Positions 508 to 35,403 of a DNA stretch of 35,403 bases are shown piece by piece. How positions within the stretch are numbered: position 1 is the first letter of the stretch; each line of letters starts with the position of its first letter. The notes under the pieces are model-generated. The model saw nothing but the letters and a program-made list of their open reading frames with translations. It did no database searches and was not told the DNA's origin. The DNA lies in IMG/VR virus record IMGVR_UViG_2648501437_000004. One strand, written 5' to 3'. This stretch comes from a virus (taxonomy: Duplodnaviria > Heunggongvirae > Uroviricota > Caudoviricetes). The position numbers and the translations under genes are program-made.

Positions 508-1269
508 TTACGAGGAAGCGTTAGCTATTTGAGCTTGTGTAAATTCGAAACCAGAATTTTGTAACCGTTGCACTAGACGAGGAACTGTTTCACGTACATG
601 GTCGTTGAAATTCAGATACAAAATCCCGTTAGCATCAGAAGGCTGTTCTAGGTGCTGTTTCTGAAGGATTGCTACATTGCTGCGCCCTAAGGACGAAAGA
701 AGCATACCCATCTCGAGTACAACGTTCTGTCTTGCGCGGGGTTGGATTTCTGCTTCACCGGCGCGCTTTGAGTATCCCATATCATCAGGTGTCAAAAGAA
801 CAATCCCGAAACGGGTAGCAGTTTGTCCTTGCCCAATTTCACGTTCAAGCTCTTCAATAATGGTGAGTCCAGTCCCTCCCGTATTCTGCAAAATGAAATG
901 GTCTGGTAATCCAAGTTTATGAAGGATTAGCTCAAGTTGCTCCTTTGCAGTATGGTCATGGCCGTGAACAATGAATATCTTTTTGGGGAGCTCAGATGGC
1001 TGTTCTACGGCTAGTGGTGTTGCCGTGGGCGGCGTTCCTAAATGGGTCATTATTGCAGTTTCAACATTGGGACGTTCTTGAGGGTTACCTTGAAACTGAA
1101 TGGTCCGGGTGGTGTAAAGGTTAACAATTACGCCATTCGTTAAACGATAGCAGTCACAAGTCTCACGCTGTTCGTGGGAAAAATTGGTGAACCCACACTC
1201 CCTCAAAAAGTCAGGAAAAGTTTCTCTCGAGTATGGATAGGTGATCGGCATTTCAGTTAGTTCCTGCAT
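508..1269 (-). CDS. TIR-like domain protein (COG4271/PF10137-type predicted nucleotide-binding TIR-like domain) with an unknown ~90-aa N-terminal domain
   Basis: ATG at 1267-1269 with AAAGGA Shine-Dalgarno. C-terminal half KIFIVHGHDHTAKEQLELILHKLGLPDHFILQ...TIIEELE...FGIVLLTPDDMG matches the FIVHGHD...VLLTPDD signature recalled for this TIR-like family. GC is visibly lower than the adjacent polymerase gene. Confidence 0.55.
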   Translation of the reverse strand: MQELTEMPITYPYSRETFPDFLRECGFTNFSHEQRETCDCYRLTNGVIVNLYTTRTIQFQGNPQERPNVETAIMTHLGTPPTATPLAVEQPSELPKKIFIVHGHDHTAKEQLELILHKLGLPDHFILQNTGGTGLTIIEELEREIGQGQTATRFGIVLLTPDDMGYSKRAGEAEIQPRARQNVVLEMGMLLSSLGRSNVAILQKQHLEQPSDANGILYLNFNDHVRETVPRLVQRLQNSGFEFTQAQIANASS

Positions 1270-7042: not shown

Positions 7043-7101
7043 CGGTTGTATTCCTTTTTTCATATCGGGGAGCACGCTGTTGCGAGTGCGCTTTCAGACA
7101 T

Positions 7102-7126
7102 AAAAAAGCCCGTCACTTGCGGCGGG
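7102..7126 (-). terminator. Putative intrinsic terminator upstream of the leftward early operon
   Basis: Minus-strand RNA gcccg-ccgcaagtga-cgggc followed by UUUUUUA. It sits between the PL-like promoter region and the first early-left gene. Confidence 0.45.
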
Positions 7127-7201
7127 CAAAGACTACACACAGCAATTACATGGATATCATCGAGTGCCTGCTTTTAACCACATCAGGCGAGGTGGTTCTC
7201 C

Positions 7202-7250
7202 TTGTACCCCTACAGTGAGAAATCGTCTAATATCTCTTCACCCCTACAGT
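7202..7250 (+). promoter_or_regulatory. Putative promoter of gene 7267-7785 bracketed by CCCCTACAGT direct repeats
   Basis: -35-like TTGTAC (7202-7207), 18-nt spacer, -10-like TCTAAT (7226-7231). CCCCTACAGT at 7206-7215 and 7241-7250. Imperfect inverted repeat tctaatatctct / agagagattaga flanks the second copy. Confidence 0.35.
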
Positions 7251-7266
7251 TTGAGAGAGATTAGAT

Positions 7267-7785
7267 ATGTCTGAAGAAAAAGGAATTCTTTCCCGGATAA
7301 CTGAATCGTTATCCGGTGTGGGAGGAGCAATTAAAAGCGCGGTTGGAGCAGCAAGAGAGATTCAGAATCTGACTGTCGACTATGCAGTTAAAGAGAAGAC
7401 GCACATCTTACTCGATAAGCTAATGGATGTTCAGATGCAGCAAATGTCGCTTCAGGAGCTGCTGATTGCGGCTAAGGAGAAAATTGTTGAACTGGAAAAT
7501 GAGAAAGTAAAGCAAGAGAACTGGGCCGCTGAAGCGGCGAGCTATGAACTTTACCAGCCTATGCGGGGTACTCTGGTCTATCGCAGCAAGCTTTCTGCAG
7601 ATGCTGACCAATCTCCGGTTTATATTTGTCCCAATTGCTACGAGCAAAAGAGAAAATCTATATTGCAAGCGGAAGGTCTGGTTACTAAGCTAGGCCTTGG
7701 GCGAGTCGTTAATATGGTTTGTTCGTACTGTAGGGCTTCCTATCTGTTCAACCCGAAATGCTTTAGAGGCCCGACTGCCTTCTGA
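7267..7785 (+). CDS. Hypothetical protein with coiled-coil segment and C-terminal Cys4 zinc-ribbon-like motif
   Basis: 172 aa, ATG at 7267 with GAGAGAGA purine-rich Shine-Dalgarno. LQELLIAAKEKIVELENEKVKQE coiled-coil-like; CPNC...18 aa...CSYC. Convergent with CI and the PL-like transcript. Confidence 0.6.
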   Translation: MSEEKGILSRITESLSGVGGAIKSAVGAAREIQNLTVDYAVKEKTHILLDKLMDVQMQQMSLQELLIAAKEKIVELENEKVKQENWAAEAASYELYQPMRGTLVYRSKLSADADQSPVYICPNCYEQKRKSILQAEGLVTKLGLGRVVNMVCSYCRASYLFNPKCFRGPTAF

Positions 7786-7887
7786 AGATGAAAATCCGGG
7801 GAAGGCAATCACGGATTACGATCCTTACAACCAGTAATTTCTTTAAGCATGGGTACCCTTCCGGTCACCCAGAGTTAAAGGAACTAA

Positions 7888-7909
7888 GCGCCCCATCATC
7901 GGGGCGTTT
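7888..7909 (+). terminator. Possible weak terminator downstream of gene 7267-7785
   Basis: cgcccc-atcatc-ggggcg hairpin followed by only TTT. Confidence 0.3.
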
Positions 7910-8099
7910 CAACTTGCGTGACTTATCAGTTCGTCGCGGTGTTGTCCTCTACGCTTACCGTACGCATACGGACTCGGCGCTTACCTCGATCCCATCGGGT
8001 GCTATTTCGTTTTGCCAGGAGCACTGCGGCTTACCTGTCACGCGGTTCTGTTTGTTAAAGAGCTGGTATTAGAAAATGCATTAATTATGCGGTATCGTA

Positions 8100-8128
8100 T
8101 TTATATGCGTTATGGGATTTTGTGTCAA
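8100..8128 (-). promoter_or_regulatory. PL-like leftward promoter with near-consensus sigma70 elements
   Basis: Minus strand reads TTGACA (plus 8123-8128), 17-nt spacer, TATAAA (plus 8100-8105). Overlapped by two tandem copies of a 17-bp operator-like motif (8086-8102, 8104-8120). Lies just past the cI terminator. Confidence 0.6.
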
Positions 8129-8157
8129 TACGAAAATGAATTATTTTGCAAATAAGA

Positions 8158-8212: not shown

Positions 8213-8887
8213 TTAGTACATGCGTAGCGCGGATTTGGCGATCCCCGCCACGTAATGGATTTTTTCAATGTTTTCGCGTGGTACTCTGACTGGTGGATGA
8301 TCTTCATTTACAGACATTAGATGGAACAGGCCATCGCGTTCGAACAAGAAGGTTTTAACCATGACCTCACCGTCCCGGGTAACCACAAGTACTTCATCAC
8401 CAGGAGTGTAGTCGTGGTTGGGTTCGACGATTACGAACTCACCCTCTTTGATTCTAGGCATCATTGAATCACCAACACATTTCAGGGCGTATGCATCTTC
8501 ATCCTTTGTCGGCCAGTATATGAAACCATCACTGCTACCTACTGAATATTGGGTGTCGCTCCAAAGTCCTCCAACGCCTAGCTGAGTGTTTCCCAAAACA
8601 GGTACTTTATTAAACCTAAGAGAAATATACGTTTTTATACCTGTCGCGTCCTCTTTCTCCATTTCTTGAAGGCTCCTTTCTGCCAGGTCTATTGGTGACA
8701 CGTGGAAGTAGTCGGCGATCTGCTTTAACGTTGCGTATTTCGGATCTTTCACCTCTCCTGATACCAGCCTGTGTAGCGTTGGTTGGTTCAGCTGTAACCG
8801 ACGTGCCAGCTCAGTTATCGAGCTTATCTTGGTTTTGTCCATCAGGTACTTGATGTTTTGAGAAAGGATATCGGTAGTATCAATCAT
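8213..8887 (-). CDS. cI: CI-like repressor (N-terminal HTH, C-terminal S24 LexA-like autopeptidase domain)
   Basis: 224 aa; HTH-like TELARRLQLNQPTLHRLVSGE; C-terminal S24 signature CVGDSMMP ... VLVV ... KTF with conserved Ser and Lys. Confidence 0.9.
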   Translation of the reverse strand: MIDTTDILSQNIKYLMDKTKISSITELARRLQLNQPTLHRLVSGEVKDPKYATLKQIADYFHVSPIDLAERSLQEMEKEDATGIKTYISLRFNKVPVLGNTQLGVGGLWSDTQYSVGSSDGFIYWPTKDEDAYALKCVGDSMMPRIKEGEFVIVEPNHDYTPGDEVLVVTRDGEVMVKTFLFERDGLFHLMSVNEDHPPVRVPRENIEKIHYVAGIAKSALRMY

Positions 8888-9028
8888 TTGGATTCATCCA
8901 TGTTGTATACAGGGACGGTGATTATGCGTTATCGGATATTTTAATACAGGATGATATAGAATTGCCGTATTGCTGAATAATCCGTTTTCGTATAAATTTG
9001 CGCTATAGACGAAAGTGGAGACTTAAAT
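8888..9028. promoter_or_regulatory. Divergent PRM/PR-like promoter-operator region between cI and cro-like gene
   Basis: 140-bp intergenic between divergent genes. Contains one copy of the 17-bp motif TATGCGTTATCGGATAT (8923-8939) shared with the PL region, ATACAGG repeats (8906, 8944), and -10-like TATAAA (8991-8996) upstream of the cro-like gene. Confidence 0.5.
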
Positions 9029-28916: not shown

Positions 28917-29978
28917 ATGTCACAGAACTGGATGAGACATTTCGAGCTGCAGCTTGTGGACGGGAACGGTCAGGGAATTGAGCTAAGTGATTTTAAAGTC
29001 ACCTTTACGATCGACTGGTTCAACATCAGCAGCGCGTCCCGGGTAGGGACTATCAAAATTTATAACCTCTCGGCAGATACTGTGAACCGAATCACCGGGC
29101 AGGAGTTTTCGAAAGTGCGTCTGATTGCCGGTTACGACGGTATCGCGCCGGAGGTGTCGGCAAGCGACGTCGGGACCGTGCGGGAAGTTGACGCGGCGGA
29201 CGTGGGTCAGAGTGATGGCCGCAACTACGGACTGATTTTCAGCGGTGAAATTCGCTACTCGGTCACAGGAAAAGACAGTCCGGTTGATTCCTACGTCCTG
29301 ATTCAGGCAGCAGATACTGATCTGGCTTTTGCCACCAGTATAACCTCACAGACGCTGGCTGCCGGTTACACGGTCGCTGATGTAAACCGTGCGCTGATGA
29401 AAGACTTCGAAGCCAAAGGCGCGACCGAAGGCCTGACGCCTGAAATGCCTGCTACTGTATTCCCCCGGGGGCGGGTACTCTTTGGCATGACGCGGCATCT
29501 AATGGATAACGTAGCCGGGCAATGTGGCACAACATGGCAATTCGTGGACGGTCAGCGCCAGATGGTGGCGAATAACGAATATGTTCATGAAGCGATTGTG
29601 CTCAACAGCGCTACCGGGCTTATTGGCATGCCGCAGCAGACTATCGGTAACGGCGTAAACGTCCGCGCGCTTATTAATCCGAACATCCGGGTTAACGGAC
29701 TTATTCAGCTGGATCAGGCTTCCGTGTATCGTACCGCCTTGTCGAACAACGATATTGCGATGGCTGGTGGTCAGATCACCGACCAGAACACGGATGGAAA
29801 TATCACGCTAAGCGGCACCACATCGCAGCCTGCCAGCATCGCAACGGATGGCGTTTATATTGTGCGCGGGATTATGTACACTGGCGACACAAGGGGCCAG
29901 GCGTGGTACATGGATATGATGTGCGAAGCGCGTGGCGCGGCGGATCTGTATACGCGATCGGCTTTGCAAAGGGGATGA
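28917..29978 (+). CDS. Putative baseplate hub / tail protein (Mu gpP / P2 gpD-like by position)
   Basis: 353 aa between the tape-measure-proximal genes and the baseplate spike genes. Confidence 0.5.
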   Translation: MSQNWMRHFELQLVDGNGQGIELSDFKVTFTIDWFNISSASRVGTIKIYNLSADTVNRITGQEFSKVRLIAGYDGIAPEVSASDVGTVREVDAADVGQSDGRNYGLIFSGEIRYSVTGKDSPVDSYVLIQAADTDLAFATSITSQTLAAGYTVADVNRALMKDFEAKGATEGLTPEMPATVFPRGRVLFGMTRHLMDNVAGQCGTTWQFVDGQRQMVANNEYVHEAIVLNSATGLIGMPQQTIGNGVNVRALINPNIRVNGLIQLDQASVYRTALSNNDIAMAGGQITDQNTDGNITLSGTTSQPASIATDGVYIVRGIMYTGDTRGQAWYMDMMCEARGAADLYTRSALQRG

Positions 29979-34001: not shown

Positions 34002-34678
34002 GCAAATACACCGAACTAATCACAAACTACCACGCCACCAAACCTAAATTTCTTGCACATGTTGATCTGATGACCCGGCCGCTTATTGATGTTGCGGCTG
34101 CCACCAGAGGGCTGATTACTGCATTTGATATTGACTCTGCGGTTGGTGTGCAACTTGACATTCTGGGATTGTGGATCGGACGTAGCCGTGTTGTCAGCCA
34201 GCCTATTTCAGGTGTCTATTTCAGCTGGGATACCGACGGGCTTGGATATGATCAGGGTGTATGGCAGGGGCCATACGATCCTGATTCCGGATACATGTAC
34301 CTCAGCGATGAAACTTATCGTGTCATCCTTAAAGCGAAGATTGCGATTAATAACTGGGACGGACGGAATGATTCGCTTCCGGCAATTCTTGACGCGGCAA
34401 CAGCAGGATCCGGACTGCGAATGCAGATAGTCGATAACCATGACATGACGATATCGGTCTGGGTCTTTCCTGATACTGATATTTCAGATGTATCGCGTGA
34501 GTTAATTGCGGCAATTAAACAGGGGTATCTCACAGTAAAAGCCGCCGGGGTATGGGCGGGTGGCATTGAAACACCTTCGGTGGAAACCCCATCGGAAGGT
34601 TCAAAATTTTTTGGTTTTGATATGGATAACGAATTCATCAGTGGTTTTGATGTAGGGGCATGGGGAGTATTACTCTGA
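33998..34678 (+). CDS. Putative tail protein I-like (baseplate/tail fibre attachment)
   Basis: 226 aa between the J-like gene and the tail fibre. Confidence 0.5.
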
Positions 34679-35403
34679 TGGCGAAAAATGACTTTAAAGC
34701 GTTTGCAACTGATCGGAATGCCAATGTTATGTCGCAGGAGGAATGGGAAGCGTTGCCTGCGCTTTTATCCGGATTTACAGCAGGGAAAGCATCCAGTGCG
34801 CAAGTCAATAAGGTTATTCGGCAGGCCAGCTTTATTGCTGCAGCTCTGGCCCAGTTTGTAAGTGACAAAACGCAACGGGATGTGCTTGATAATGGTGATC
34901 TGCCCGGTTTTGTTGAATTGCTGGGATCGGGGTTTGCTGTTGAATACCTGAGCCGCAAGAATCCGTTTGGTGATATCAAATCGGATGGCACGGTGGAAAC
35001 GGCTCTCGAAAACCTTGGTTTGGGAGAAGGAGCTCCAGCTATTGGCGTTCCGTTCTTCTGGCCGTCCGCTGCAATGCCAGATACCGTAATCGATAGCTGG
35101 TCCGGTATGGTGTTTTTGAAGTTCAACGGCGCGAAATTCTCTGCCACTGATTACCCTGTGCTGGCGAAAGTGTTTCCGGCTCTGGCATTACCTGACGCAC
35201 GCGGTGATTTCATTCGTATCTGGGATGACGGGCGCGGGATTGATGTCGGACGTACCCTACTTTCAGGGCAATCACACACAATTATGGATCATGCACACAA
35301 TATGGGTAAGCGTGCAGCAAGAACCGTATTGACGGGGATGTGTTATTCAGTCGGCAGTGCTACGCGCCAGGGGAGCAGTTCGCCGACCCGGTTTATCGGC
35401 CAG
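34678..35403 (+). CDS. Tail fibre protein, 3'-partial, with phage tail collar domain
   Basis: ATG 34678 (ATGA overlap); frame open to the window end. Collar-like [63 protein letters not shown]. Confidence 0.7.

Follow-up and report, generated by a model that had tools for sequence, protein, structure and literature searches.

The DNA analysed here, called the window, is the complete 35,403-nt stretch of IMG/VR record IMGVR_UViG_2648501437_000004, a prophage or phage of the Caudoviricetes with repressor, cro, terminase and portal genes. Beside the repressor gene (8213-8887, minus strand), an open reading frame (ORF) of 172 codons with an ATG start occupies positions 7267-7785 of the plus strand; this gene and the regulatory block upstream of it are the subject of this study. 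A preliminary description, made from the sequence alone, had placed the ORF at the position where lambdoid phages carry accessory genes such as sieB or rex, and had credited its product with a coiled coil followed by CPNC ... CSYC. These features were borne out: the gene is an accessory gene at the sieB/rex position beside the repressor, the N-terminal half of the 172-aa product is long and helical, and the two cysteine pairs lie at residues 121-124 and 152-155. The gene has no partner in an operon and constitutes a single-gene system.

The preliminary description found nothing it recognised in the protein and called for homology and structure searches. These searches identified a clear homologue with a solved structure and a published mechanism. 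Among solved structures only one matched, PDB 9oox, through its chain L (phmmer E 1.9e-46, residues 3-166 of the window protein against 3-162). This chain is the Rip1 protein ("ring interacting pore 1") of Escherichia phage HK446 and has the same sequence as HK446 gp37; a profile built from 55 family members also matched 9oox alone (E 6e-47). BLASTP of the window protein against HK446 gp37 gave 51% identity over the full length (E 5e-58). The Rip1 fold, with an N-terminal helix, a long coiled-coil helix and a C-terminal beta-rich zinc-ribbon domain, was recovered in the predicted structure of the window protein. The computed helical hydrophobic moment peaks at residues 7-24, reaching 0.44 in the window protein and 0.42 in HK446 Rip1; no hydrophobic stretch was found in the window protein. 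Residues W86, Y93, C121, C124, C152 and C155, invariant across 55 representatives taken from the family of 3401 clusters, are all present. By homology, the window protein is a member of the Rip1 family: every Rip1 feature that can be computed was found in it, and activation by ring proteins and pore formation are predicted properties.

A 2026 review and a meeting report (PMC13434031, PMC12908700) describe Rip1 (Patel et al. 2026, Nature 651:1060) as a prophage protein that acts singly and has no toxicity of its own. They report that a 12-mer ring of Rip1 assembles around the 11-mer small-terminase ring of the infecting phage, that Rip1 escapers in Pseudomonas map to the portal, and that the amphipathic N-terminus then forms an inner-membrane pore, permeabilising the cell and aborting infection before progeny are made (PMC13434031, PMC12908700). 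The small terminase of the window phage itself is of the Terminase_2 type and showed no sequence match to the partner chain in 9oox, from which nothing firm on self-triggering follows.

The family is large. When 1.84 billion cluster representatives were searched with a profile, 3401 relatives were returned at E <= 0.001, nearly all of 150-175 aa and matching end to end; a word-indexed search gave 16 relatives of the window protein. Scans of the protein and 55 relatives against Pfam, PADLOC and NCBIfam yielded only weak coiled-coil or zinc-ribbon noise, the one PHROGs match was the unnamed family phrog_1244, and RefSeq labels the gene hypothetical in 155 of 5426 complete E. coli genomes. Despite about 3400 clusters at 50% identity, the family is without a name in Pfam, NCBIfam, PADLOC (2023) and PHROGs, and its link to Rip1 supplies a function that has been tested.

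The regulatory block upstream of the gene has a different kinship (Table 1). BLAST of the region against 50,697 phage records returned four near-identical phages and more than 120 lambdoid phages that match 7164-7269 only, at 81-86% identity; this block matches 136 phage records. The lambda match (34395-34499, 81.3% identity) immediately precedes sieB (34482-35036), which runs opposite to N and PL, and the P22 match (29651-29736) has 86.2% identity over 86 nt. The P22 record NC_002371 annotates a sieB promoter at 29690-29720 and a "sieB RNA start site" at 29727. The preliminary description had given the gene its own promoter with a -10 element between the two repeats, and the TAATAT at 7228-7233 does align with the annotated P22 sieB -10; the promoter is not new but homologous to that of P22 and lambda sieB, with the sas antisense RNA on the opposite strand. 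A consensus scan missed it because its spacer is long. Repeat 1 overlaps the -35 region, and repeat 2 forms the first 11 bases of the predicted mRNA. We conclude that the window promoter is, by homology, the sieB promoter of P22 and lambda, and that the gene is predicted to be transcribed from it.

Table 1 Features of the rip1 locus. Coordinates are positions in the window; assignments come from the sequence.
Feature	Position	Strand	Details
RprA-like 3' module	7098..7150	-	AAUUGCUGUGUGUAGUCUUUGCCC 7147-7124, then terminator hairpin and U-run 7127-7102
sas-like antisense RNA block (RNA predicted)	7164..7269	-	homologous to P22 sas RNA and to the lambda sequence that precedes sieB
sieB-type promoter (by homology)	7203..7233	+	-35 region TGTACC 7203-7208, 19-nt spacer, -10 TAATAT 7228-7233; base for base with NC_002371 29690-29720
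Repeat 1, ACCCCTACAGT	7206..7216	+	overlaps -35; apical stem-loop TGTA-CCCC-TACA of hairpin HP2 (7196-7221)
Predicted transcription start, A	7240	+	homology to P22 start 29727; 6 nt past the -10 in both phages
Repeat 2, ACCCCTACAGT	7240..7250	+	predicted mRNA 5' end; loop of a 13-bp imperfect inverted repeat, TCTAATATCTCTTC 7226-7239 / GAGAGAGATTAGA 7253-7265
rip1 homologue, 172 aa	7267..7785	+	N-terminal amphipathic helix, long coiled-coil helix, C-terminal four-cysteine zinc ribbon
Extra C in a C-run, relative to the 189-aa allele	7752..7754	+	DNA alignment with phage vB_EcoM-611R5
Probable rip1 terminator	7889..7915	+	CGCCCC-ATCATC-GGGGCG, then TTTCAACTT; below the scan's T-run criterion
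boxA-like GCTCTTTAACAA	8052..8063	-	about 30 nt downstream of the PL start
Probable PL	8100..8128	-	TTGACA 8128-8123, 17-nt spacer, TATAAA 8105-8100; just past the terminator of the repressor gene (cI)

On the opposite strand, the near-consensus promoter at 8128-8100 is probably PL, in line with the convergence noted in the preliminary description, and its transcript would run antisense through rip1. Operator-like repeats lie around it and in the cI-cro region (8086-8103, 8104-8121 and 8923-8940), a 24-nt inverted match joins the PL side to the cI-cro region (8128-8151 / 8970-8993), and PL-flanking motifs of 16-24 nt recur in the repressor-cro intergenic region. The consensus promoter scan found none on the minus strand inside rip1. 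The preliminary description had taken the orientation of the gene as a difference from sieB; since sieB itself opposes PL and N in lambda and P22, the convergent layout of the window is the sieB arrangement and no departure from it.

The minus strand of the block aligns with the P22 sas RNA, whose 127-nt sequence is given by a 2026 small-RNA sequencing study (PMC13397905). The window antisense block is sas-like by homology, and the RNA itself is predicted; it includes a module of four segments, GCCTG (7166-7170), AACCAC (7176-7181), CAGGC (7184-7188) and GTGGTT (7192-7197). An Rfam scan of the window at gathering thresholds gave no match; Rfam has no sas family. As sequenced, P22 sas has its 5' end 35 nt downstream of the sieB mRNA start, in cargo-specific sequence, and covers the start codon (PMC13397905); in the window, PL transcripts would in any case cover the ribosome-binding site and the start codon of rip1. 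Secondary sources state that sas shifts sieB translation toward the in-frame inhibitor Esc, whereby P22 escapes its own exclusion. An Esc-like truncated Rip1 produced from an internal start was considered for the window and rejected: no internal methionine is conserved in Rip1 relatives, M53 giving way to other residues in the 174-aa group and across the wider family.

Directly past the sas-like block, the minus strand carries a module resembling the 3' end of RprA, which scored 47.5 bits against Rfam RF00034 (gathering 70, E 3.3e-5), with confident alignment in the 3' half only. Its terminator is the first intrinsic terminator that PL transcripts would meet past the block, and the early-left genes (from 7075 leftwards) stand behind it. 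This end was seen only in the lineage of the window phage (611R5, 606R2, 689R2 and locus L070), and weakly in some Erwinia N4-like phages. No N-sized or N-like ORF was found between PL and rip1, though the early-left genes stand behind an intrinsic terminator. The boxA-like GCTCTTTAACAA (8063-8052, minus strand) matches the rrn boxA consensus. Past it, a GTG-started ORF of 32 codons (7926-8024, minus strand) encodes an arginine-rich peptide, MLLAKRNSTRWDRGKRRVRMRTVSVEDNTATN, which recalls the arginine-rich motif of N proteins and may be a chance product. As a separate observation, five loci carry the module GCCTG-CTTTTAACCACATCAGGC-GCGGTGGTTCT without the repeats or a sieB-type promoter, with unrelated sequence after it. 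The module may be an independent element, and a pseudoknot or alternative hairpins could arise from its two overlapping helices.

To see which genes follow the block elsewhere, IMG/VR was scanned for its most conserved part and then for variants; the locus counts below are among the matches listed. Of 108 loci with a called cargo gene, 81 have one for a SieB-family membrane protein; the other 27 have one for a Rip1-family protein, in some cases very divergent. No BLAST link was found between the SieB and Rip1 clusters, and the window protein as a form of SieB was rejected: it falls in a separate cluster and is without membrane-spanning segments. Rip1 and SieB are alternative cargoes of one conserved promoter and antisense cassette. 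Variant cassettes with altered repeat motifs were observed at 16 IMG/VR prophage loci (L023 among them), and the cargoes of variant cassettes are a 70-71-aa protein, a 136-137-aa Rip1-like protein, a 167-174-aa protein and a 148-aa protein. The 136-137-aa cargo, with an amphipathic N-terminus, a coiled coil and CPNC...CGSC, is a short Rip1-like form. Seven other loci retain repeat 1 and the -10, with repeat 2 replaced by the hairpin ACCCCCTTATTTTGTCAGGGGGAT and no plus-strand ORF after it; their cargo may be deleted or replaced.

The two repeats were reported in the preliminary description as a 10-mer, CCCCTACAGT, at 7206-7215 and 7241-7250. The 10-mer is real and its second copy was correctly placed, but the first was one base off and lies at 7207-7216; the exact repeat is the 11-mer ACCCCTACAGT, at 7206-7216 and 7240-7250, 34 bp apart. 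Exact matches of CCCCTACAG occur in the 35.4-kb window at these two sites only, and its eight matches with one mismatch are not above those in shuffled sequence (4.7 +/- 2.0). Within the gene, an inverted CCCTACAG with one mismatch (7728-7736), which encodes the second CxxC, was rejected as a further copy, being within this chance number. The preliminary description had made its reading depend on conservation of the repeats in relatives. Both copies are kept, as two CCCC-led motifs 32-34 bp apart, in 130 of the 138 related phage loci, and in 117 of these 130 the two motifs share at least their first 8 bases; because of this conservation, the repeat exceeds chance. Five motif variants were found in which both copies are altered alike (TACAG, AACATA, AACGCA/AATGCA, AACAAC/AACACA and AGCAAC/AGCAAA). 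In the four variants other than TACAG, both copies carry the variant: repeat 1 CCCCAACATA goes with repeat 2 CCCCAACATA, CCCCAACGCA with CCCCAATGCA or CCCCAACGTA, CCCCAACAAC with CCCCAACACA, and CCCCAGCAAC with CCCCAGCAAA. Since the two copies change together while the sequence between them has diverged, they must be coupled.

Coupling of this kind could arise from a protein. Were the ACCCCTACAGT copies operators, a DNA-binding regulator seated on the -35 and on +1 would switch the gene off or on, and direct repeats so placed, with roughly three helical turns (34 bp) from one to the other, have the classic geometry of a repressor; one protein reading both copies would also fit their joint change in the variant lineages. 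The same motif, however, occurs in lambda, P22, HK446 and the non-lambdoid phage of the window, despite their differing immunity regions and cargoes, so that a co-varying phage regulator is hard to name, and a host regulator would not account for five motif variants. The operator-like repeats of the window phage's own CI differ in sequence, and inspection by eye revealed no LexA, CRP or IHF-like box and no extended -10 in the repeats. In addition, the hairpin that contains copy 1 shows compensatory changes, a property of RNA. What had been called an operator-like arrangement is correct in that the repeats flank the -10, but the operator reading found no positive support and we regard it as unlikely; a role in RNA explains the co-variation more simply. 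An even less probable account holds that the repeats are a functionless relic of a tandem duplication of a promoter unit of about 34 bp, their conservation reflecting only the -35 and the initially transcribed sequence. The sequences that follow the two copies are similar, both in the window (GAGAAATCGTCTAATATCTC and GAGAGAGATTAGATATGTC) and in P22 (GAGAAATCGGATAAAC and GAGAATCGCCGATGAAC), which suggests an old duplication. Yet the spacer has freely diverged and the two 9-11-mers are still identical to each other; their joint replacement on at least four occasions is not predicted by drift, and gene conversion between tracts of 10 nt is unlikely. We therefore consider a mere relic very unlikely.

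The hairpin that holds copy 1, HP2, pairs TTCTC (7196-7200) with GAGAA (7217-7221) and TGTA (7203-7206) with TACA (7211-7214) around the loop CCCC (7207-7210). When 25 distinct cassettes were aligned, compensatory changes appeared in 4 of the 10 HP2 pairs, and 95% of the cells were paired, against 31-48% in slid controls; the test used a structure specified by us, the other helices being invariant and fixed by the search pattern. G-U cells in the sas orientation outnumber A-C cells by 10 to 4, and in the most divergent lineage (L023-type) the hairpin forms an unbroken 10-bp stem, two of its pairs being G-U, in the sas strand only. These observations speak, modestly, for the antisense RNA as the molecule that folds. 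In the window, both arms of the inverted repeat around copy 2 are contained in the antisense transcript only. We favour a role for the repeats at the RNA level, in antisense silencing of rip1 when PL fires: RNA-RNA recognition is a simpler account of the co-variation than an operator, and the same motif spans different immunities and cargoes.

The window copy of the gene differs from its commoner allele at the 3' end. Relative to the 189-aa allele (102 cluster members), an additional C shifts the frame by +1 after residue 162, replacing the last 27 residues (...RNALEARLPSEDENPGKAITDYDPYNQ) by 10 others; the original frame runs on to a stop at 7835-7837. One reading of this difference is that the window copy is a decaying pseudogene, inactivated by the frameshift, at a locus that is now functionless. 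The extra base itself and the lengths of the best 15 E. coli genome matches, 12 of them one base shorter than the window and 3 equal to it, are in its favour, as is one genome in which an insertion sequence ends directly at the ATG and the cassette is lost. Set against this, the frameshift falls past the second CxxC and past the stretch that aligns with the 164-aa HK446 Rip1; the lost tail, which ends ...ITDYDPYNQ, is absent from HK446 Rip1 and most relatives and is predicted to be disordered (predicted local distance difference test, pLDDT, 44-48); and the exact 172-aa protein persists on 21 contigs from several independent samples. A pseudogene thus appears distinctly unlikely. With the tail absent from most relatives, 21 contigs bearing the protein and 3 of 15 E. 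coli genomes sharing its length, we think that the 172-aa form is a putative living allele.

Other details of this 3' region and of the insertion were noted. The insertion sequence lies in E. coli GCA_001265595.1 (300-460 of the extracted locus), where it abuts the ATG of the 172-aa rip1 allele and displaces the promoter/antisense cassette; it contains a transposase ORF with an rve domain, and its terminal sequence reads ...TGGAAATATAGGGGCAAATCCA. Positions 7815-7837 of the window lie in the old rip1 frame; the 189-aa form ends in ...ITDYDPYNQ, and two other long Rip1 relatives end in ...TDYDPYK and ...TDYDPYD. Lambda SieB, an unrelated protein of the same slot, has ...ASYDPYNIEIK near its C-terminus; the motif may be shared or coincidental.

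Taken together, these results lead us to propose, with a probability of roughly three in four, that 7267-7785 is a prophage abortive-infection gene of the Rip1 type, placed in the sieB slot of lambda and P22 and equipped with the sieB regulatory cassette and sas-like self-silencing. A lysogen could make the Rip1 homologue from the sieB-type promoter, starting at A7240, because this promoter is independent of the repressor-controlled PL. By analogy with HK446 Rip1, the Rip1 ring would assemble around the ring-shaped small terminase or portal of a superinfecting phage, leading to a pore and to cell death before progeny appear. During lytic growth of the prophage, or of a phage with the same cassette, leftward transcription from PL would pass antisense through rip1 and yield a sas-like RNA that is the complement of the rip1 mRNA across its 5' end, Shine-Dalgarno sequence and start codon. 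This RNA would block translation of the suicide protein, as in P22 sas/sieB, and the phage would not abort its own growth. Both ACCCCTACAGT copies would then be parts of an RNA circuit, not operators: copy 2 would be the mRNA 5' end, while the conserved hairpin of the antisense RNA would present the complement of copy 1 on its 5' arm and in its GGGG loop. The antisense RNA would thereby have a second site matching the mRNA 5' end, which could make the first contact. As the complement of the mRNA 5' end would be presented twice, in cis and on the repeat-1 hairpin, the two copies would have to stay alike. In the window lineage, the antisense transcript would end at the RprA-like terminator (7127-7102).

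Several points weigh against this proposal. The start site, and the existence and ends of the antisense RNA, are all carried over from P22 by analogy, and the Esc half of the P22 mechanism, by which that phage escapes SieB through an in-frame product, is absent here. RNAalifold on the 25 cassettes gave another, non-covarying consensus and did not recover the hairpins that we specified, and the single-sequence fold of the 178-nt minus-strand RNA was no better than shuffles (z -0.26). The register of the copy-2 hairpin differs among lineages, as between the window and P22. The loci are related enterobacterial prophages picked by a sequence pattern, so the counts are not independent events. Finally, the frameshifted C-terminus might impair the window copy.

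Both the protein family and the cassette are already described; the modular nature of the cassette, its co-varying repeats and the RprA-like 3' end joined to it in the window lineage may be new. A shared cassette suggests a way for a prophage to harbour a lethal sensor of phage assembly proteins and yet escape self-killing when induced, and it offers the self-silencing idea a concrete element to mutate, namely two co-varying 10-mers and one hairpin. More tentatively, and with more doubt than confidence in the scheme as a whole, the sieB promoter/sas block might be a portable self-silencing cassette for suicide-defence genes, serving SieB, Rip1 and at least three other types of cargo. Its antisense RNA might recognise the mRNA 5' end of any cargo through a co-evolving motif written twice, in the mRNA and in the antisense hairpin; the phage's own PL transcription would disarm the defence, and the RprA 3' end gained in the window lineage would possibly recruit Hfq. 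Elsewhere on the same prophage, 508-1269 (minus strand) encodes a 253-aa protein with a CAP12/Pycsar-effector TIR domain (PF10137, E 2.9e-31), weakly similar to the Cap12 NAD+ hydrolases of CBASS, and by this domain is likely a second defence gene.

Compared with known systems, the window gene is closest to HK446 rip1. The two proteins share full-length homology at 51% identity, the same length class, the N-terminal amphipathic helix, the coiled coil, the four-cysteine zinc ribbon and the predicted fold, and both genes are lone prophage genes oriented against PL with a sieB-type cassette upstream. In HK446, rip1 sits exactly between a ral-like gene and N, with the same cassette block upstream, whereas the window phage has no N gene between PL and rip1. 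It also carries another replication and early-left module, with DNA polymerase A, a DUF2800 nuclease, an Enc34-type single-stranded DNA-binding protein and a primase-polymerase/helicase, and its rip1 allele is frameshifted at the C-terminal end.

The second system is the sieB-esc-sas locus of P22 and lambda, a superinfection exclusion locus reportedly described in 1993 by Ranade and Poteete (J Bacteriol 175:4712; Genes Dev 7:1498), the year in which its sieB promoter is reported to have been mapped. The window shares with it the promoter, the transcription start and the antisense-RNA block (81-86% identity), the position adjoining the immunity region and the convergence with PL; the class of function, prophage-encoded abortive exclusion, would also be the same. 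By contrast, the window protein is unrelated to SieB and is without a conserved in-frame internal start for an Esc-like inhibitor, and the antisense block is followed by the RprA-like terminator instead of ral.

The third is RprA (RF00034). The 5' half of RprA includes the part that pairs with rpoS. The last 50 nt of the window element (7147-7098, minus strand) fit the RprA consensus, with 24 of 24 core bases, the terminator hairpin and the U-run, but over the whole model the element falls below the gathering score, its 5' half being unmatched. The phage element directly follows the sas-like block and is at most a borrowed RprA 3' end.

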